From the NCBI GenBank assembly GCA_038065395.1, contig JBBTRB010000006.1:19493-83492 (forward strand): a DNA stretch of 64,000 bases. The letters run 5' to 3'. The translations under genes were made by a program, and so were the position numbers. Source of the stretch: Patescibacteria group bacterium (GTDB lineage Bacteria > Patescibacteriota > Minisyncoccia > Phycocordibacterales > PALSA-1337). Below, in pieces: positions 3,051 to 58,832 of the stretch. Within the stretch, counting starts at the first letter, position 1. Every line of letters starts with the position of its first letter. The notes under the pieces are model-generated. The model had not been told where the DNA came from and ran no database searches. It saw nothing but the letters and a program-made list of their open reading frames with translations.

Positions 3051-3995
3051 ATGATCCCTATGTCTCATATCTACGATCTTGCGATCATCGGCGGAGGACC
3101 AGGCGGTGCAGCGGCTGGTGTGTATGCATCACGCAAACGTCTCAAGACAGTTTTCATCACAAAAGACTGGCTCGGCCAGAGTAATGTCTCCGAGAAGATC
3201 GAGAACTGGGTCGGTACCATAGCAATATCAGGACTCGAACTCTCTACGAGTCTCGAAAAGCACGTCAAAGCCTACGCCGAAGGGATCATTGATTTCAAAG
3301 AGGGCGAGCTATGTACCCAGATACAAAAGTCAGACACGGAAGATGCCGTCTTCACGATCTCAACTGACAAGGGTTCGTACCAGGCCAAGACGATCCTGAT
3401 CACAAGTGGCAGCAGCAGACGCACACTCGATGTGCCTGGCGCCAAAGAATACGACAACAAAGGTCTGACCTACTGTGCGACCTGCGATGGCCCTCTCTTT
3501 GCCGACCAGGACGTCGTGGTCGTTGGTGGTGGCAATGCCGGATTCGAAAGTGCCGCGCAGCTCCTGGCATACTGCAAGAGTGTCACGCTCCTCTCACGCA
3601 GTGAATTCAAGGCAGACCCGGGCACCGTCGAAAAAGTCCTGAGTAACCCCAAGATGCGTGCCATAACCAATGCACTTCCCAAAGAAGTCCGCGGAGAGAA
3701 GTTCGTCACCTCATTCACCTATACTGACACTGCTTCTGGTACAGATATCACACTTCCAGTCACGGGTGTATTCGTCGAAGTAGGCTCGATCCCCAACAGT
3801 AGTTTCGTCAAAGACATCGTCAAGCTCGACCAATACAACCGTATCCCTGTTGACCCACGTACCCAGATGACTTCTACCCCGGGTATCTGGGCAGCTGGAG
3901 ATGTGACCGACGGACTTTACCATCAGAACAACATCGCAGCCGGAGATGCCGTGAAAGCTCTCGAAGATATCTATCTGTATATCCACGCAAAATAA
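3051..3995 (+). CDS. trxB: Thioredoxin-disulfide reductase-like flavoprotein (TrxB family)
   Basis: FAD-binding GGGPGG at the N-terminus, redox-active CATCDG, and an NAD(P)-binding VVVVGGGNAG. ATG at 3051 (MIPMSHIYDLAIIGGG). Confidence 0.75.
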   Translation: MIPMSHIYDLAIIGGGPGGAAAGVYASRKRLKTVFITKDWLGQSNVSEKIENWVGTIAISGLELSTSLEKHVKAYAEGIIDFKEGELCTQIQKSDTEDAVFTISTDKGSYQAKTILITSGSSRRTLDVPGAKEYDNKGLTYCATCDGPLFADQDVVVVGGGNAGFESAAQLLAYCKSVTLLSRSEFKADPGTVEKVLSNPKMRAITNALPKEVRGEKFVTSFTYTDTASGTDITLPVTGVFVEVGSIPNSSFVKDIVKLDQYNRIPVDPRTQMTSTPGIWAAGDVTDGLYHQNNIAAGDAVKALEDIYLYIHAK

Positions 3996-4579: not shown

Positions 4580-4760
4580 GGAGCTGGCAGGCTCACGATC
4601 TTCCGTGGCGACAGTATATCAGAAGTATTCATACCACAATAGCGACAATTACATTATATTGACATAGAGTCAACTACATAGTAGAGTACCGACTAGTGGC
4701 ACCTTCTCATGAAGGTGCCAATTTTTGAAAATACAACCTCGAACCCCGAAAGGATCGAAT

Positions 4761-6359
4761 ATGAAGCTCCTCAAAAACACGCCAGGACTGGCATGGACAT
4801 GGATGGTGCTGGTCTGCACCCTCCTCTTCAGAACCCCAGATGCATACACTGCGGTACGTATCGGATTGACCCGGACTGGTCCACAGACACTGTCACTCAC
4901 CTGGCCCAGTAGTCCCAACGTCATCTACCGAGTGCAAAGCTCGACCAATGCTCATGGTCCGTGGAAGAAGTCATTCTCCCCCGTTCTAGGCAATGGCCAG
5001 CAAAAGTCTATCCCTCTACCAAGCCCGAAGCCAATGGAACTGTTCCGGTTGACTGAATTATCGATCGATAGTTCGATCGACCTGACCGAAGATCATCTGC
5101 TCAGTGGTACGGTACAGATCGACATTACTGCTCTTGCAACATCAGGTGACATACAGTCTATCGGGCTGTGGGATATCTTCCGGAGCACCACCAATGTCCT
5201 TGATTATATCGACATCCGCGACCCGTCTCGACGGTCATTCACGGTCAACACTGCACATCTGCGCAACGGAACTCATGGATTGCAACTGGAACTCATCACA
5301 CCGAACCTCATCTCGTACTCAGACATGGTGCCAGTGCGTTCCAGCAATGCTATCGCCGTGGTCAGTCAGATCCCCACAGAGTTCATGAGGTACCTCGAAT
5401 TCGTACCTCATGCTACCAATGGCACCTACTCGGTCATCGTCAAGAATGACCAAGGTACGATGGTACAAAGCACTAACCGGAATATGGCAGGATCACTGAG
5501 TACCAACGGTACGATCGTCTTCAAAGATGGCTCTGCTCGTTTCACCAACATCTACAGCAGTGCCTACTTCGACTATACGATCACCACCGTGGTAGGACAG
5601 ACAACCAGCACCTATTCCTTCCGATCACCGACGGTCAGCGTCTTCGATTGGCTGGAAGGGACAGTTATCGGCCAAGTGCCTGCAGAGCTGGATATTGAGA
5701 CGAGTGAACTCGAACGTATGCTCCTTGCGCCAACGGTCAACTTTGGCTTTTGGGGAGATATGTTCATCTTTGCCACACAAACACGCGAGACCACGGTTGA
5801 AAGCTGGAATATGCTCGCGGATAGCACTTACGAGGTGTGTAACGACTACCTACTCGGTTCTTATGGACGTGCACCTTCGCACGTACATATCTATAGTTCT
5901 GGTGGAACTGACTATGTCGGTTCCCGAAGTACGAACAAAACCGAAGGAGTAAGCACTGCCACGCTACAGAGTCTGAGTCTGTCCAACCGTCCAACGTTCT
6001 TATTCCTGGATGGCTGTTCGGTACCCAGAAGTCTGGCTGCTCACCTCTCAGGGATCACTGATCTCGGAGCCCGTTGGTCTAGAGCAGATCTCCTCCGAGA
6101 AGGACGAAGACCACATGTCGTCTTTTACTGGAAAGATACTCCGTTCCCTTACCAGGAAGCGGATGTCTCTGTACGACATCGAAGCTTCATCGCCGATCTG
6201 TACACGGAACTCTGGAAACCAGACTTCATCGGACTTCCTGCTCAGACGATCGATGTTGCACTGGCCAAGATGCGTCAGCGATACCCAGGACCCATGAGCG
6301 AACTCTACAGGATGGGTTCGACGGATATCTTCATCGACGAGACGCTACCCCATCAGTGA
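4761..6359 (+). CDS. Secreted hypothetical protein (about 530 aa)
   Basis: Signal-peptide-like N-terminus (MKLLKNTPGLAWTWMVLVCTLLF). AAGGA 8 nt upstream of the ATG at 4761. A terminator hairpin follows the stop. C-terminal region has a His...hydrophobic-DGC pattern (HVHIYSSGG / FLFLDGCS) faintly reminiscent of clan CD cysteine peptidases. Confidence 0.6.
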   Translation: MKLLKNTPGLAWTWMVLVCTLLFRTPDAYTAVRIGLTRTGPQTLSLTWPSSPNVIYRVQSSTNAHGPWKKSFSPVLGNGQQKSIPLPSPKPMELFRLTELSIDSSIDLTEDHLLSGTVQIDITALATSGDIQSIGLWDIFRSTTNVLDYIDIRDPSRRSFTVNTAHLRNGTHGLQLELITPNLISYSDMVPVRSSNAIAVVSQIPTEFMRYLEFVPHATNGTYSVIVKNDQGTMVQSTNRNMAGSLSTNGTIVFKDGSARFTNIYSSAYFDYTITTVVGQTTSTYSFRSPTVSVFDWLEGTVIGQVPAELDIETSELERMLLAPTVNFGFWGDMFIFATQTRETTVESWNMLADSTYEVCNDYLLGSYGRAPSHVHIYSSGGTDYVGSRSTNKTEGVSTATLQSLSLSNRPTFLFLDGCSVPRSLAAHLSGITDLGARWSRADLLREGRRPHVVFYWKDTPFPYQEADVSVRHRSFIADLYTELWKPDFIGLPAQTIDVALAKMRQRYPGPMSELYRMGSTDIFIDETLPHQ

Positions 6360-8200: not shown

Positions 8201-8289
8201 GGAGAGATGGCTGAGTGGTTTAAGGCAGCGGTTTACTAAACCGCCGTTCCCTCACGGGAACCGTGGGTTCGAATCCCACTCTCTCCGCA
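8201..8289 (+). tRNA. tRNA-Ser (type II, long variable arm); hand-folded anticodon reads ACU
   Basis: 7-bp acceptor GGAGAGA/TCTCTCC, G73 discriminator, and a Ser-type D-loop GCTGAGTGGTTTAAGGC. Anticodon stem GCGGT/ACCGC, loop TTACTAA. Variable arm CGTTCCCTCACGGGAACCG; T-arm GTGGGTTCGAATCCCAC. Confidence 0.8.
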
Positions 8290-8476
8290 GTTGATCTGTA
8301 CCCCATAAAGTGGACACGGGTACACGTTTTCTTTTGTTAGAATTAGAAAATCATACAATGAAGACACCGAGGCTTGAGTCAGGTGGTTACAAATATTAAC
8401 CAGTTGGAAATGATAGCAGAAGACAGGAAAATGCGTCTAAAAATGTTAGAATTATCAAAGAATCGAAAACAAAACT

Positions 8477-13085: not shown

Positions 13086-13155
13086 ATAATTGAGCTTTTC
13101 AAGGTAACACAGAAAGCGCGGTTTGGAAAGTCGGTTTCCTGATTCCTATTCACTG

Positions 13156-13290
13156 CGGAGAGAGGGAGATTCGAGTCCTACAGACTCTGTACAGGTTTCA
13201 CATTTTCTCATCCTCGACAAGCTCGGACTCGAAAATATGTTCAACCTTTTCGAATCCCTCACGCAACGTGCTCAAGCACGTTGCTTCTCC
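13156..13290 (-). ncRNA. tRNA-Ser-derived tRNA-like element, copy 1, downstream of tRNA-Ser(CGA)
   Basis: Begins GGAGAAG (partial match to the tRNA 5' acceptor strand). Palindromic hairpin GCAACGTGC-TTGA-GCACGTTGC, then GTGAGGGATTCGAAAAGGTTGAACAT. Ends GAAACCTGTACAGAGTCTGTAGGAC-TCGAATCTCCCTCTCTCC-G-CA, an exact copy of the T-loop/acceptor 3' end of the adjacent tRNA. Confidence 0.5.
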
Positions 13291-13325: not shown

Positions 13326-13412
13326 CGGAGAGAGGGAGATTCGAACTCCCGAGGAACTTTCGCCCCTGCCACTTTTCGAAAGTGGTGCATTCAACCACTC
13401 TGCCATCTCTCC
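13326..13412 (-). tRNA. tRNA-Ser(CGA)
   Basis: Minus-strand cloverleaf: acceptor GGAGAGA/TCTCTCC, anticodon stem CCACT/AGTGG with loop TTCGAAA, long variable arm, T-arm GGGAGTTCGAATCTCCC, G73. Confidence 0.85.
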
Positions 13413-43561: not shown

Positions 43562-43604
43562 TAGCAAAAAAGAAAATACCCGTCTTTAGAACGGGTATTT
43601 TCAT
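43562..43604 (-). terminator. Rho-independent terminator after rnpB
   Basis: Minus-strand AAAATACCCGTTCTAAAGACGGGTATTTTCTTTTTT. Confidence 0.7.
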
Positions 43605-43980
43605 GTTGCCACACCATAAGCCGAATTCTGTATCTGACAATCATTTATCTGGTCCTCCATTCGCACGGAGGATCTAGCGACTCTTTCCGATGCACCTTGC
43701 GGTGAGCGGAACACGGTCTTGCACCAACGTAAGGGTTTTGCCGTTGCATCTTCCTTATTACTAGGGAAGCTCGCCCCGATGCACCTTACGGTGATCGGGG
43801 CGCCCTTCGACTTTCGTCTCAGGGCGTCACTGTTCGCACCTCTGGGTGTTACCCTGGCAGGAGTTACCTGCTACGTGCTTTTCCGATGCACCTTACGGTG
43901 AGCGGAATGGTGTTCGGACTTTCCTATCCGAACGCCGTGAGGCGCATCGGATCGATTGTCTGGTGGTGCGTATACAATTA
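43605..43980 (-). ncRNA. rnpB: RNase P RNA, bacterial type A
   Basis: Minus-strand matches to universal RNase P RNA regions: GGAAAGTCCGAACACC (P4 5' strand), GGGTAACACCC, ACAGAATTCGGCTTATGGTG (P4 3' strand, cf. E. coli ACAGAACCCGGCTTATCGGT), and P1 pairing of CACCACCAGACAATCG with the 3' end. Confidence 0.85.
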
Positions 43981-50235: not shown

Positions 50236-50366
50236 ACTGCTATTTTAGCAGGTTTTGGCTGTAGCGGAATCATCGTGGCCGTGTTTGACATGTCATCTAC
50301 TTATCTCACATTCTGTGCTAGATTGAATACCTAAAAACTACATCTATGGAAAACCTTGGATTCCCT

Positions 50367-51053
50367 ATGCGGATCAACAAATATCTGGCCTTACACGGAC
50401 ATTCGACACGCCGTGGTGCTGACGTGCTCATCGAAACCAAGCAGGTGTTCATCAATGGCAAACCTGCCGTGCTCGGTGACAAAGTCGGAGAAAAGGATGT
50501 AGTTGAAGTTCGTCTGAAAGGCAAGAAAAAGGAGTACCGCTATATTGCCTACAACAAACCACGAGGTATCGTGACGCATTCTGCACAAGGTGATGAAAAA
50601 GAGATCGGCACCGAAGTCCCGGTCAAAGGCGTATTCCCTATTGGTCGCCTCGATAAGGATTCACATGGTCTCATCATCCTTACTGATGATGGACGTATAA
50701 CCGACAGACTTCTCGGACCTTCCTACAAACACGAAAAAGAATACGTCGTAAAAACAAAGGAAAAACTGCGATCAAGTTTCAAGGAGAAAATGGAAGCCGG
50801 GGTTCAGATCGACGACGAAAAAACTGCCCCCTGCAGAGTACACATTCTCAATGATTTCTCATTCAAAGTTATTTTGACTGAAGGTAAAAAACACCAGATC
50901 CGTCGTATGTGCGTAGCGCTCTTCCAGGAAGTTCTCGACCTCCAGCGCATTCGTATTATGAATATCAAAATTACTCACCTAGCCGAAGGTGATTATCGAG
51001 AGATACAAGGCGAAGAACTTCAAACCTTTTTGCATTCATTAGGGTTGGTGTAG
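50367..51053 (+). CDS. Pseudouridine synthase (RsuA/RluB family)
   Basis: S4 domain MRINKYLALHGHSTRRGADVLI, and catalytic-Asp motif PIGRLDKDSHGLIILTDDG. ATG at 50367. Confidence 0.8.
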   Translation: MRINKYLALHGHSTRRGADVLIETKQVFINGKPAVLGDKVGEKDVVEVRLKGKKKEYRYIAYNKPRGIVTHSAQGDEKEIGTEVPVKGVFPIGRLDKDSHGLIILTDDGRITDRLLGPSYKHEKEYVVKTKEKLRSSFKEKMEAGVQIDDEKTAPCRVHILNDFSFKVILTEGKKHQIRRMCVALFQEVLDLQRIRIMNIKITHLAEGDYREIQGEELQTFLHSLGLV

Positions 51054-51104
51054 TAAAACAAAGATGCTTTTTCGGTTCGTTTTTGCTACTCTGTTCTGAC
51101 ACAC

Positions 51105-51193
51105 GGAGGGTTCGCATAGTGGTCTAGTGCACCACCTTGGAAAGGTGGCATACCTTAACGGGTATCGAGAGTTCGAATCTCTCACCCTCCGCA
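51105..51193 (+). tRNA. tRNA-Ser(GGA)
   Basis: Acceptor GGAGGGT/ACCCTCC, G73. Anticodon stem CCACC/GGTGG with loop TTGGAAA. Long variable arm; T-arm GAGAGTTCGAATCTCTC. Confidence 0.85.
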
Positions 51194-51218
51194 ACGAACG
51201 AATGAAATGAGTGAGTAA

Positions 51219-51361
51219 GGAGGGTAGCAAAGCGCCTGCGCGCTTTGCGTGAGAGATTCGAAAAGGTTGAGCATGTCGCAACAAGTCCTGAGCCTTTCGA
51301 AGGACGAAGTGAGACGCGAAACCTGTACAGAGTCTGTAAGACTCGAATCTCTCACCCTCCG
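51219..51361 (+). ncRNA. tRNA-Ser-derived tRNA-like element, copy 2, downstream of tRNA-Ser(GGA)
   Basis: Starts with GGAGGGT (exact 5' acceptor strand of the adjacent tRNA). Hairpin GCAAAGCGC-CTGC-GCGCTTTGC, then GTGAGAGATTCGAAAAGGTTGAGCAT. Ends GAAACCTGTACAGAGTCTGTAAGAC-TCGAATCTCTC-ACCCTCC-G-CA. About 70% identical to copy 1 in the shared internal segments. Confidence 0.5.
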
Positions 51362-51386
51362 CATTAAAATACGCTATACTACACCC

Positions 51387-51788
51387 ATGAAAAAATACAT
51401 CACCATCATCCTTAAAGTAGTTTTTAGCCTTATCCTGCTCATGCCGATCCTGGGTATGACAGGCATCTTCCCTGACCCGACAGCAGACATGTACAACACT
51501 CCTGCGGCATTTGCCTTCATTGAGATGCTCATAGCCGCAGGATATATCAACATCATCATGGGCGTTGTTTCTTTGATCTCCCTGATCTTCCTCTGGACAC
51601 GTCGCACTGCCGCAGCAGCACTCCTCATGATACCGATCACGCTCAACATCGTCAGTTTCCATGCACTCATCGACGGTGGACCGTTCACCAGTGGCGCCCT
51701 CATGGGAAATGTATTCTTCTTGATCAATATTTACTTCCTCTGGCAAAACAAGGAGGTATACAAAACTCTGTTGGAAAAGAGAGGTTAG
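51387..51788 (+). CDS. Hypothetical membrane protein
   Basis: ATG at 51387 (MKKYITIILKVVFSLILLMPILG), four TM helices. The ORF-track 5' extension back to 51249 overlaps the tRNA-like element and is unlikely to be translated. Confidence 0.5.
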   Translation: MKKYITIILKVVFSLILLMPILGMTGIFPDPTADMYNTPAAFAFIEMLIAAGYINIIMGVVSLISLIFLWTRRTAAAALLMIPITLNIVSFHALIDGGPFTSGALMGNVFFLINIYFLWQNKEVYKTLLEKRG

Positions 51789-58536: not shown

Positions 58537-58758
58537 ATGAAGTCCCTCCTCCCGTACATCCAGATCATTCTGTCCGTGCTTCTTGTTGCAGCCATTCTTC
58601 TCCAGAGGACTGGTGCTCAGGTAGGCGGTGCATTCGGAGGAAGTGATAACTTCAGCTCGGCATTCCATACACGCCGTGGATTCGAAAAGGTACTCTTTAT
58701 AGTGACGATCATTATCGCTATTCTGTTTGCTCTATCAGCACTCGTGAACCTTATTTAA
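58537..58758 (+). CDS. secG: Preprotein translocase subunit SecG
   Basis: 73 aa, two TM helices, ILLQ..GAQVGGAFGG pattern. Confidence 0.6.
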   Translation: MKSLLPYIQIILSVLLVAAILLQRTGAQVGGAFGGSDNFSSAFHTRRGFEKVLFIVTIIIAILFALSALVNLI

Positions 58759-58759
58759 T

Positions 58760-58832
58760 ACGATTTAGGATTTAAGATTTAAGAATCGGGCAGATACTGT
58801 CATTCTTAAATCGTAAATCTTACATCTTAAAT
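58760..58832. repeat. AT-rich long inverted-repeat element, copy B (inverted relative to copy A at 27511-27598)
   Basis: ACGATTTAGGATTTAAGATTTAAGAAT...ATTCTTAAATCGTAAATCTTACATCTTAAATC. Arms correspond to the reverse complement of copy A's arms. Intercistronic between secG and the solute-binding protein gene. Confidence 0.6.

Follow-up and report, generated by a model that had tools for sequence, protein, structure and literature searches.

The tRNA-Ser(GGA) gene in the window (the whole 64,000-nucleotide stretch of patescibacterial DNA analysed here) is followed on the same strand by an element that opens like the tRNA's 5' end and closes with a copy of its 3' end, and the question is what such an element is and whether it acts as RNA, as DNA or not at all. 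A first-pass annotation had described it as a tRNA-Ser body in which one hairpin replaces the D, anticodon and variable arms and the T-loop is expanded. We think it probable, though far from certain, that the element is an RNA unit co-transcribed with tRNA-Ser(GGA), with a new core type (type A), and similar in design to RtT (Rfam RF00391; gene rttR), known from the tyrT-tyrV locus of E. coli as 178-bp repeats.

Layout of the unit behind tRNA-Ser(GGA)

The tRNA gene, called at 51105–51192 by ARAGORN, has the annotated start in both ARAGORN and Rfam (Table 1). The first copy of repeat X runs from the second T-loop base through the 3' strands of the T-stem and acceptor stem to the discriminator plus CA. 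The second copy, the annotated terminal copy of the tRNA 3' end, is identical over all 21 nt, provides the 3' strand of both closing helices and ends at discriminator G51361 plus CA. The gap of 25 nt given for tRNA and element is right when counted from the CA but amounts to 27 nt when counted from the discriminator, and is filled by a spacer that resembles those of comparison loci L006/L011, L024, L040 and L017 (L-numbers denote comparison loci throughout). A' is identical to tRNA positions 1–7, as annotated. The 9-bp perfect hairpin described earlier was confirmed as an inverted repeat; this hairpin, H1, occupies the point from which the D/anticodon domain of a tRNA branches off, is flanked by a conserved A and GT and shows compensatory changes relative to the other window copy, L006, L009 and L040. 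T' is antisense to the 3' half of the T-loop, the T-stem 3' strand and 2 nt of the acceptor strand. The stretch 51219–51363 is non-coding, no ORF was found inside the unit, and unit length is about 170 nt. The insert stretch reported as common to both window copies holds up: a 25-mer occurs exactly twice in the window, with zero expected.

Table 1. Features of the two tRNA-Ser loci in the window. Copy 1 is the unit behind tRNA-Ser(CGA).
Feature	Position	Strand	Evidence or remark
tRNA-Ser(GGA)	51105–51191	+	Rfam RF00005, 55.4 bits; no encoded CCA
Repeat X, first copy	51173–51193	+	21-nt direct repeat, 100%
Purine-rich spacer ACGAACGAATGAAATGAGTGAGTAA	51194–51218	+	sequence
A' (GGAGGGT)	51219–51225	+	complementary to acceptor 3' strand
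Hairpin H1 (GCAAAGCGC/CTGC/GCGCTTTGC)	51227–51248	+	9 bp, loop CTGC
T' (GTGAGAGATTCGAA)	51249–51262	+	inverted-repeat matches, 13–14 nt, 100%
Core three-way junction	51263–51342	+	MFE and covariation; model R1, 75.2 bits
Core J1			GAAA(A)
Core P3 (AGGUU/AACCU)	51264–51268 with 51320–51324	+	variable covarying extension, GAGC..CGA loop motif
Core J2 (GUACAG)	51325–51330	+	
Core P4	51331–51343	+	loop GUA/UGUAA
Repeat X, second copy (TCGAATCTCTCACCCTCCGCA)	51343–51363	+	100% direct repeat of 51173–51193
Small membrane-protein gene	51387–51788	+	BLASTP; L027 ortholog from residue 49 of the long ORF
tRNA-Ser(CGA), partner of copy 1	13326–13412	-	ARAGORN, Rfam
Copy 1 of the unit	13141–13290	-	R1, 84.1 bits
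Copy 1 A' (GGAGA)	13290–13286	-	
Copy 1 H1	13284–13263	-	
Copy 1 terminal repeat	13174–13141	-	34 nt, 91% identical to 13344–13311

Predicted folding of the two window copies

Both window copies share one predicted MFE architecture, which was more stable than all of 200 shuffled sequences (z = -6.7 and -4.9 for the two copies). An acceptor-type helix is stacked on a T-type helix with the discriminator at the 3' end, comprising 7 bp (51219–51225 with 51354–51360) and 9 bp in the GGA unit and 5 + 5 + 4 bp in copy 1. The repeat of copy 1 extends beyond the tRNA into the trailer, the sequence past it is collinear with the empty-site trailer of L038, and its pairing register is offset by 2 nt from the tRNA's own stems. 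The annotated pairing of the 5' segments with the terminal repeat is borne out family-wide. The dimensions given for the closure are borne out in part: the acceptor stem does have 7 bp, but the inner helix has 9 bp rather than the 5 bp of a T-stem, and the loop is not open. The segment taken for a T-stem strand plus T-loop-like sequence instead forms a 13-nt pairing with the 3' repeat, because TTCGAA is palindromic.

These features bear directly on the idea of an independent tRNA-like RNA, a miniature tRNA-Ser that has H1 in place of its body and carries cargo in the T-loop, which RNase P would cut at G51219 and RNase Z after G51361, and which would then receive CCA and possibly be charged by SerRS. 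The 7-bp acceptor-type helix on a T-type helix, the position of H1 exactly at the 7/49 junction, a discriminator identical to the tRNA's and the RNase P RNA gene that the annotation had correctly placed in the window (rnpB, 43603–43970, minus strand, 82.5 bits) are all consistent with it. The unit has no T-loop, however, since TTCGAA and the unit's own repeat make a helix of 9–13 bp; the variable arm and anticodon as charging identity elements are absent, and neither the tRNA covariance model nor ARAGORN called a cloverleaf at 51219–51363. We regard such a tRNA-like RNA as unlikely.

T' could pair with either copy of X, its 14 nt being equally complementary to the real tRNA 3' end. By prediction, a swapped conformer with the antisense segment on that tRNA 3' end is the more stable one by about 6 kcal/mol, which counts against the RtT-like reading. 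Equal complementarity to both copies would suit a three-segment RNA switch, in which the inverted copy (X') of the tRNA 3' end would bind one of two partners: the repeat, or the real tRNA 3' end, which would block tRNA maturation and free the downstream repeat. What happens to the downstream transcript would then be coupled to tRNA folding or processing. In both window copies the conformers differ by no more than about 6 kcal/mol, and no terminator precedes the downstream ORF. A switch is nevertheless very unlikely in our view: the tRNA is the first part to fold as the transcript is made, the genes downstream are unrelated between loci, one of the three segments is missing from many members, and the conserved core would be left without a role. 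G·U pairs outnumber A·C pairs in the helices by 18 to 9, or 7 to 6 without the outer stem, and by MFE the forward strand is on average only 3.3 kcal/mol more stable than the reverse. Rare, strand-unbiased G·U pairs and a small forward-strand gain leave room for a role as folded DNA.

A family of relatives with a covarying core

Searching with the core pattern returned one genome match and 19 metagenome loci, to which model R1 then added six diverged copies; six of the seven genome-contig matches of the first pattern were rejected as chance, as was an R1 match at 58678–58788 of the window (E = 0.33). The more than 20 relatives lie behind tRNA-Ser, -Tyr, -Arg, -Gly and an intron-containing (group I intron) tRNA, and their carriers are Patescibacteria and respiring (COX1-encoding) bacteria. 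Wherever the 5' flank is present and intact, the unit is 3' of a tRNA on the same strand. The unit is not specifically a tRNA-Ser derivative, as the same core stands behind tRNAs of other kinds, and the insert is a conserved, presumably functional core instead of an expanded T-loop.

Support for this core comes from covariation. Eleven of its 18 pairs are altered on both sides, as are all five pairs of P4, and 92.7–94.1% of core cells are paired; the value of 92.7% compares with 76.9% in shuffles, none of 500 of which reached it. The diverged copies compensate even bases that the pattern had fixed. Because of this covariation we disfavour a non-functional relic, whether left by a decayed island as an attachment-site scar or produced by slipped duplication, and consider it most improbable. 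The unit is dispensable and polymorphic, and L020, L010 and L016 are degenerate copies, as a relic would have it, but compensatory change is extensive in P3, P4 and H1, junction nucleotides are conserved across phyla, the family spans both Patescibacteria and COX1-encoding bacteria, and the carrier genomes are very small.

The antisense and repeat segments follow the tRNA that they adjoin. Among 14 elements, the segment before ATTCG matched the T-stem 3' strand of its own tRNA at 5.3 of 6 positions and that of other tRNAs at 3.9 of 6 (permutation p < 5e-5), and the acceptor mimic A' paired at 6.0 of 7 positions with its own tRNA and at 5.45 of 7 with others (p = 0.004); these are register-based counts, the duplex-energy version being confounded by H1. 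Many relatives have truncated repeats or no acceptor-type helix, the latter being absent in about half of them, and this weakens the RtT-like reading. The repeat frequently continues beyond the tRNA into the trailer. In about half of the relatives a terminator-like hairpin separates tRNA and unit, which counts against simple co-transcription at those loci.

The same frame also carries other cores (types B, C and D), in L022, L020 and L008. In L022, tRNA 3'-end repeats occur at four of six tRNAs, with two different units in tandem behind tRNA-Arg and a 55-nt repeat at tRNA-Phe. Overall, the frame was found with Ser, Tyr, Arg, Gly, Trp, Phe and Glu tRNAs. Recurrence of the order A'-A-H1-GU-T' with different cargo cores would be expected of a miniature tRNA-Ser, but the frequent loss of the acceptor helix and the range of tRNAs would not, and recognition by SerRS is implausible because the frame is common to tRNAs of many identities. 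Rfam scans at gathering thresholds and in permissive mode of the region, the window, L022 and L008 returned only tRNA, weak sX4 matches and noise; no Rfam family describes the type-A core family.

Gain, loss and genomic surroundings

The site between ABC transporter genes and TsaD is occupied by a unit in the window, L040–42 and L022 and is empty in L038 and L043, L038 and L040 being 84–90% identical and having the same tRNA. An empty orthologous tRNA-Ser(CGA) site in close relatives shows the unit to be dispensable, a further point against the RtT-like reading. At the GGA locus, synteny on the RluF side revealed a response regulator in place of tRNA and unit in all close relatives, and no orthologs of the GGA unit. 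No promoter or terminator match was obtained between tRNA, unit and ORF, and no promoter, terminator or recombinase gene near either window copy, in line with the RtT-like reading; recombinase Pfam matches were absent from about 22 neighbouring ORFs of the window. An all-versus-all comparison of ORFs within 5 kb at 20 loci gave no protein family common to the loci, and IMG/VR, INPHARED and PLSDB contained no phage or plasmid match.

Such polymorphism raises the possibility that the unit acts at the DNA level, as a miniature ORF-less integrative cassette inserted site-specifically in the tRNA T-loop (T55/C56). The cassette would supply a replacement tRNA 3' end and leave the displaced original as the distal repeat, single-stranded X:X' pairing would form a folded attachment site comparable to integron attC and CTX-phi attP, and the core would be a cis element for recombination or replication. 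Several observations agree with this. The repeat invariably begins at T-loop C56 on the left but has a variable right edge (12–55 nt), often with the trailer, and even the terminator, included; units in tandem differ in their cores, each after X and a terminator-like hairpin; near-identical units have different junctions and neighbouring cargo (L009/L021/L025 and L006/L011/L023), L021 with a 470-bp insert of promoter and ORF at the unit's repeat; orthologous sites are either empty or occupied; and pairing in the helices is almost entirely Watson-Crick, without strand bias. Against it, no recombinase is linked to the units, whether among ORFs within 5 kb at the 20 loci or by Pfam near both window copies, and viral, phage and plasmid collections yielded no match. 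Simple deletion between the repeats would account for empty and occupied sites equally well. Moreover, the tRNA-Ser(CGA) unit appears vertically inherited over about 70% nucleotide divergence; the purine-rich loops, GAAA junction and conserved pentaloop resemble RNA tertiary motifs; and the re-creation of X' for each new tRNA is left unexplained. On balance we consider an integrative cassette rather unlikely, if less so than a miniature tRNA-Ser.

Two kinds of known recombination system invite comparison here. Integrative elements that target tRNA genes reportedly duplicate the tRNA 3' end as attL/attR, with a T-loop class among them. The direct repeat from the T-loop to or past the tRNA 3' end, the tRNA left intact, the tandem accretion and the variable cargo beside the repeats are alike. 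The unit, however, is only about 170 bp long with an integrase neither inside nor nearby, and it contains an inverted repeat copy and a covarying structured core, for which we know of no counterpart in the attachment sites of double-stranded elements. Integron attC and CTX-phi attP are folded single-stranded recombination sites, and the unit recalls them as an imperfect palindrome whose stem reproduces the target duplex, with one arm bearing H1 as an extrahelical feature, a terminal structure that varies, and cassettes free of ORFs. It differs in that no IntI or Xer-type partner was identified, in having a tRNA gene as target and in the conserved sequence of its core, attC sites, as far as is known, conserving structure only. 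Bridge RNA, omega-RNA, IS605 and group II introns were rejected as candidates, as no recombinase, TnpB or reverse transcriptase is linked and repeats of 20–55 nt do not fit their mechanisms.

Similarity to E. coli RtT and other RNAs

To our knowledge, RtT has for decades remained an isolated oddity of the tyrT operon in E. coli, with no accepted function. Like the window unit, it is placed directly 3' of a tRNA gene on the same strand, with tandem copies possible. The tyrT/tyrV units start with GGGGAAGGAU, antisense to the T-stem 3' strand, and end with a direct repeat of the tRNA-Tyr 3' end (AAUCCUUCCCCCACCACCA), and the closing helix of the Rfam consensus pairs this start with the terminal repeat (GgGaaGG with CCuuCcC). 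Lengths are similar (171–178 nt versus 170 nt for the window unit), and RtT shares the GAGC-N-CGAG loop motif and a UUCGA..AGGUU stretch. In the form GAGC-N-CGA(G/A), the loop motif occurs in RtT, in the L022 tRNA-Phe unit and in at least 7 of 22 type-A cores, with 0.18 expected. In NC_000913.3, rttR is annotated as a 171-nt RNA that runs from 8 nt past tyrV to the CCA of the repeat, i.e. to its tRNA-like 3' end.

The core topology of RtT is different (long internal loop, inner helix, two hairpins). Missing from RtT are the J2 UGUAC, the UGUAA loop of P4, H1 and the segment antisense to the acceptor. The RtT repeat begins at A58/59 instead of C56 and has CCA encoded, and there is overlap between RtT and the small ORF tpr. 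With RF00391 (gathering 45 bits), the E. coli units reach 133–137 bits; this model had no match in 51000–51500 at E ≤ 10, in the whole window at E ≤ 0.01, in L022 at E ≤ 1 or in L008 at E ≤ 10. The link to RtT is therefore best worded as an analogy of architecture and short motifs rather than as homology. For a miniature tRNA-Ser, RtT cuts both ways: rttR terminates at a tRNA-like CCA, but RtT has no acceptor helix and its 5' end lies in the spacer and not at the +1 G.

The weak sX4 matches concern an RNA of Xanthomonas whose Rfam model (RF02223) covers a tRNA-Ser(CGA) together with the sequence behind it. In the consensus structure, CCCCCC of the T-stem 3' strand is paired to a GGGGGG farther downstream, after which comes UGAGA; type-C units show the same arrangement, a downstream similarity drawn from the Rfam consensus only. 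All scores were below the gathering threshold of 70 bits (window 19.9, L022 40.2 and L008 22 bits), those of the window and L022 deriving mostly from the tRNA-Ser part. On northern blots, sX4 (tRNA-Ser plus downstream sequence) appears at 280–300 nt (PMC3300014), an uncut form that speaks for the RtT-like reading and against release of a miniature tRNA-Ser.

As regards other structured RNAs, the acceptor/T-arm minihelix could recruit tRNA end-processing enzymes to a non-tRNA RNA, as in tRNA-like processing modules. These include MALAT1 mascRNA, the tRNA-like domain of tmRNA, plant viral tRNA-like structures and engineered tRNA scaffolds. The unit, however, is without a T-loop/D-loop elbow and is missed by tRNA and mascRNA models, and its helices copy the adjoining tRNA where a generic mimic might be used. 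Three further candidates were dismissed: small ribozymes (hammerhead junction strand order and sequence judged unfit by eye, no ribozyme family match), tmRNA or two-piece tmRNA (none called by ARAGORN, acceptor not Ala-like) and a retroviral-type primer-binding site (what the antisense segment matches is the gene with its trailer, not a CCA-ended mature tRNA).

A possible course of events and its wider meaning

Under the RtT-like reading, a structured non-coding domain of about 170 nt would be transcribed together with the upstream tRNA-Ser(GGA). The tRNA would fold first, and the inverted copy (A' and T') would then pair with the downstream repeat X, closing the type-A core with a helix made of both and yielding an acceptor/T-arm-like minihelix with H1 at the position of the tRNA body. 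In this way the unit may gain a tRNA-type 3' end at G51361 that tRNA 3'-processing enzymes could trim, and a discrete RNA of about 145–170 nt might be released, by analogy with the annotated E. coli rttR. At the DNA level, recombination at tRNA 3'-end repeats may underlie gain, loss, tandem stacking and transfer between tRNA genes, while gene conversion or template switching might keep the antisense segment and both copies of X matched to the local tRNA.

A design like that of RtT, with an antisense segment and a duplicated tRNA 3' end, may thus be common and diverse behind many tRNA species, in ultra-small Patescibacteria as well as respiring bacteria, which would offer a comparative handle on the role of RtT-type units. 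At least one strongly covarying core lies outside all Rfam families and is a candidate for a new class of structured RNA, or of folded DNA, for biochemical study. More tentatively, the window unit, core types B, C and D, Xanthomonas sX4 and E. coli RtT might belong to one widespread superfamily of ORF-less exchangeable RNA cassettes, in which a tRNA 3'-end copy and its antisense serve as a universal insertion and processing module. This module might act as a 'tRNA scaffold' of natural origin and in addition guide recombination into the T-loops of tRNAs, with structured cores as cargo spread across phyla from Patescibacteria to Proteobacteria. If the units were indeed mobile RNA cassettes or folded attachment sites, they would represent a new kind of mobile element, and the arrangement suggests a route by which tRNA 3' flanks turn into hot spots for small cassettes.

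The units also explain recurrent 'pseudo-tRNA 3' ends' and over-extended ORF calls beside tRNA genes in metagenome-assembled genomes. The membrane-protein ORF downstream of the GGA unit, which had been annotated as artificially extended into the element with its real start probably at the ATG at 51387, is a case in point, as the L027 ortholog aligns from exactly that methionine.

Two copies of one unit in the window

The first-pass annotation had reported a tRNA-Ser(GGA) with an adjoining element, and this arrangement was confirmed at the sequence level (copy 2; see table). Repeat analysis showed that the antisense block of the element is a perfect complement of its terminal repeat and, equally, of the real tRNA 3' end. 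Copy 1, located behind tRNA-Ser(CGA) on the minus strand, has a matching layout, with a repeat of 34 nt that extends into the trailer. The predicted folds of both copies (z = -6.7 and -4.9) share one architecture, consisting of an outer helix A, hairpin H1, a 9-bp helix T, and a three-way junction formed by J1 (GAAA), P3, J2 (GUACA), and P4. Measured from start to start, the repeats are exactly 170 nt apart in both copies (51173/51343 and 13141/13311) despite differing lengths of the spacer, P3, and A' (the antisense acceptor segment), which may reflect a length constraint or coincidence.

The long ORF at 51249-51788 is over-extended; the alignment with the ortholog begins at Met 51387, the ATG that had been proposed as its true start. 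In all close relatives (L027, L028, L032-L037) RluF is followed by a response-regulator gene (minus strand), and thus tRNA-Ser(GGA) and its unit, which take this place in the window (50346-51053 to 51387), lie at a rearrangement breakpoint.

Positions of the units and associated features in the window and in loci from other genomes and metagenomes (L-numbers)
Feature	Locus	Position	Strand	Basis or remark
tRNA-Ser(GGA)	window	51105-51191/2	+	ARAGORN and Rfam
Purine-rich spacer, 25 nt	window	between tRNA-Ser(GGA) and unit	+	sequence
GGAGGGT	window	51219-51225	+	same as 5' acceptor strand of tRNA-Ser(GGA)
Hairpin H1, perfect, 9 bp	window	51227-51248	+	sequence
Antisense block GTGAGAGATTCGAA	window	51249-51262	+	sequence
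Interior, ~80 nt	window	between GTGAGAGATTCGAA and terminal repeat	+	sequence
Terminal repeat TCGAATCTCTCACCCTCCGCA	window	51343-51363	+	100% direct repeat of 51173-51193
tRNA-Ser(ACU)	window	8201-8288	+	anticodon loop UUACUAA
Trailer hairpin	window	8289-8340		behind tRNA-Ser(ACU)
RNase P RNA	window	43603-43970	-	bacterial class A, 82.5 bits, E = 2e-23
Hairpin behind terminal repeat	L006	about 3180-3225	-	Saccharibacteria
tRNA-Ser(ACU)	L015	7242-7329	-	anticodon loop UUACUAA
Diverged type-A copy	L015	7100-7183		R1 model
Diverged type-A copy	L020	1666-1735		R1 model
Diverged type-A copy	L013	688-769		R1 model
Diverged type-A copy	L010	708-794		R1 model
Diverged type-A copies	L040-42			R1 model
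tRNA-Arg with other core	L022	715-787	-	antisense and 3'-end-repeat frame
tRNA-Phe with other core	L022	1142-1215	+	antisense and 3'-end-repeat frame
tRNA-Glu with other core	L022	7619-7694	-	antisense and 3'-end-repeat frame
Other core	L020	1420-1740		antisense and 3'-end-repeat frame
Other core	L008			antisense and 3'-end-repeat frame
Group I intron in tRNA	L009	10842-11139		precedes unit; tRNA missed by ARAGORN
Group I intron in tRNA	L025	5115-5334		precedes unit; tRNA missed by ARAGORN

Covariation and tRNA-specific closing helices

Among 22 members with the core of the window unit (type A), 92.7% of cells are paired versus 76.9% in shuffles, changes on both sides occur in 11 of 18 pairs, and none of 500 shuffles attains any of five whole-structure measures. 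The signal is lost when the partner column is slid. All five pairs of P4 covary, and in diverged members compensation is seen even at P3 bases fixed by the search pattern. Conserved bases are CGAAAAG in J1, UGUAC in J2, and UGUAA in the P4 loop.

Closing segments are specific to the adjoining tRNA. For the hexamer preceding ATTCG, pairing with the T-stem 3' strand of its own tRNA reaches 5.3 of 6 positions, versus 3.9 with other tRNAs (p < 5e-5), and the acceptor antisense pairs at 6.0 of 7 versus 5.45 (p = 0.004). The closing helices first read from the window are thus real; closure by acceptor and T helices together holds for the window copies, while about half of the members have helix T alone.

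Distribution of the family

A Saccharibacteria MAG (L006) with almost the same design emerged from a genome scan, searching metagenomes with the two core blocks yielded 19 loci, and R1, a covariance model based on the core, found diverged copies lacking the exact search pattern. At every locus with a 5' flank that is present and intact, a same-strand tRNA immediately precedes the unit, namely Ser (GCU, CGA, GGA, ACU), Tyr, Arg, Gly, or a group-I-intron tRNA. The interpretation of the element as a tRNA-Ser relic was therefore too narrow, and it is not likely to be a SerRS substrate. The window comes from a Patescibacteria/Parcubacteria-type bacterium, and the family probably extends beyond Patescibacteria because COX1 is encoded in L016 and a Cache/HAMP receptor in L015; Patescibacteria are not known to have respiratory oxidases. 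Large and strongly structured, the family is absent from Rfam 15, none of whose families matches the core, and from the literature searched; the viral, phage, and plasmid collections searched held nothing similar.

The anticodon ACU replaces the usual GCU in a tRNA-Ser of two unrelated genomes, that of the window and that of L015, and A34 would have to be modified, or decode in an unusual way, to read AGY. A unit lies downstream of the L015 gene and none behind that of the window. An ORF overlapping the start of the L009 and L025 group I introns has Cys/His motifs similar to HNH endonuclease.

Empty and occupied sites, tandem units, and other cores

ABC transporter genes, tRNA-Ser(CGA), tRNA-Glu, tRNA-Val, and TsaD form a conserved synteny in which the site is occupied in L040-42, the window, and L022, and empty in L038 and L043 (tRNA-to-ABC-gene gap of only 79 nt). 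L038 and L040 have an identical tRNA and 9-kb loci collinear at about 80-90% identity, and the sole break in their alignment is a 164-bp insertion. Past the repeat, the sequence of window copy 1 runs collinear with the trailer of the empty site. Because orthologous sites exist in empty and occupied versions, the unit is dispensable, and its gain or loss takes place at the repeats; the data fit deletion between repeats and site-specific insertion alike. No recombinase linked to the units was found among ORFs near the loci or the window neighbours.

The repeat invariably starts on the left at T-loop C56; its right edge is variable, often taking in the trailer. Four of six tRNAs in L022 (Arg, Phe, Glu, Ser) have a 3'-end repeat 110-270 nt downstream, and the units there show the same frame with other cores. 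Two different units stand in tandem behind tRNA-Arg, each preceded by the direct repeat and a terminator-like hairpin; the 55-nt repeat of tRNA-Phe includes the terminator. Starting from the T-stem antisense copy, type B reads T'-CGAAAG-CCGC..GCGG-GGUCGCG..GUGACC and type C T'-UGAGAAAG-ACGGAC...; type D has two short hairpins. Near-identical units with unlike right-hand junctions and neighbouring cargo occur in L006/L011/L023 and L009/L021/L025.

Compared with L025, L021 (oriented 4657-5121) has a 470-bp cassette inserted exactly at the terminal repeat of the unit. It starts with the missing acceptor strand GCGGAGC and a terminator hairpin, contains a TTGACA/TATAAT-like promoter, an 85-aa membrane ORF, and a terminator, and is flanked by CCTACCC and CCCTCACCC. 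The conserved trailer hairpin of the window tRNA-Ser(ACU) and the hairpin behind the L006 terminal repeat share the loop CCCCAUAAAGU(G/A)GACACGG, consistent with the unit in L006 having displaced the native trailer of tRNA-Ser.

Relationship to sX4 and RtT

Weak matches to sX4 (RF02223; 19.9 and 40.2 bits) derive chiefly from its tRNA-Ser part; in its Rfam consensus the T-stem 3' strand is base-paired to G's further downstream, and the transcript in Xanthomonas is 280-300 nt (PMC3300014). Judged from sequence, the decisive match in architecture is to the RtT units at E. coli tyrT/tyrV (RF00391, 133-137 bits). The RtT unit starts with GGGGAAGGAU, antisense to the T-stem 3' strand of tRNA-Tyr; next comes UGAGAAG, a feature also of the L022 and L008 type C units. 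It ends with AAUCCUUCCCCCACCACCA, which repeats the tRNA 3' end and is paired with GGGGAAGGAU in the Rfam consensus. The loop motif GAGC-N-CGA(G/A) is common to RtT, the tRNA-Phe unit of L022, and no fewer than 7 of 22 type-A cores (0.18 expected). The RF00391 model matches neither the window element nor L022 or L008, so the link consists in design and short motifs. The window unit is a new core type in an RtT-like design, which appears widespread, and the type-A family could at last render RtT-type units tractable.

The RtT spacer (L045, E. coli NC_000913.3 1286500-1288100) holds a T-loop-like box, AACGAAUCC, similar to boxes of the form GAACGAA(UC) in the spacers of the window and in the L038 empty-site trailer.

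Proposed function as RNA or DNA

As no promoter or terminator signal was found between tRNA, unit, and downstream ORF in the window, we infer that tRNA and unit are co-transcribed. The tRNA would fold first; pairing of the antisense segments with the downstream repeat would follow and close the core as an independent domain whose 3' end would imitate that of the tRNA and be set by tRNA 3'-processing enzymes. The annotation of rttR (171 nt, from 8 nt past tyrV to the CCA of the repeat) implies likewise for E. coli. In silico, swapped pairing, in which the antisense binds the real tRNA end, is favoured by about 6 kcal/mol, which makes bistability possible. A serious rival to this RNA-based reading is a role as folded single-strand DNA, the unit being a mini integrative cassette: many relatives have terminator-like hairpins between tRNA and unit, G.U pairs are scarce and without strand bias, and strand preference is weak, all of which count against a purely RNA reading.

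The presence of rnpB in the window, also noted at first pass, was borne out; the match lies below the Rfam gathering score of 100 and was therefore missed by the default scan, and the gene looks like a divergent Patescibacteria rnpB.
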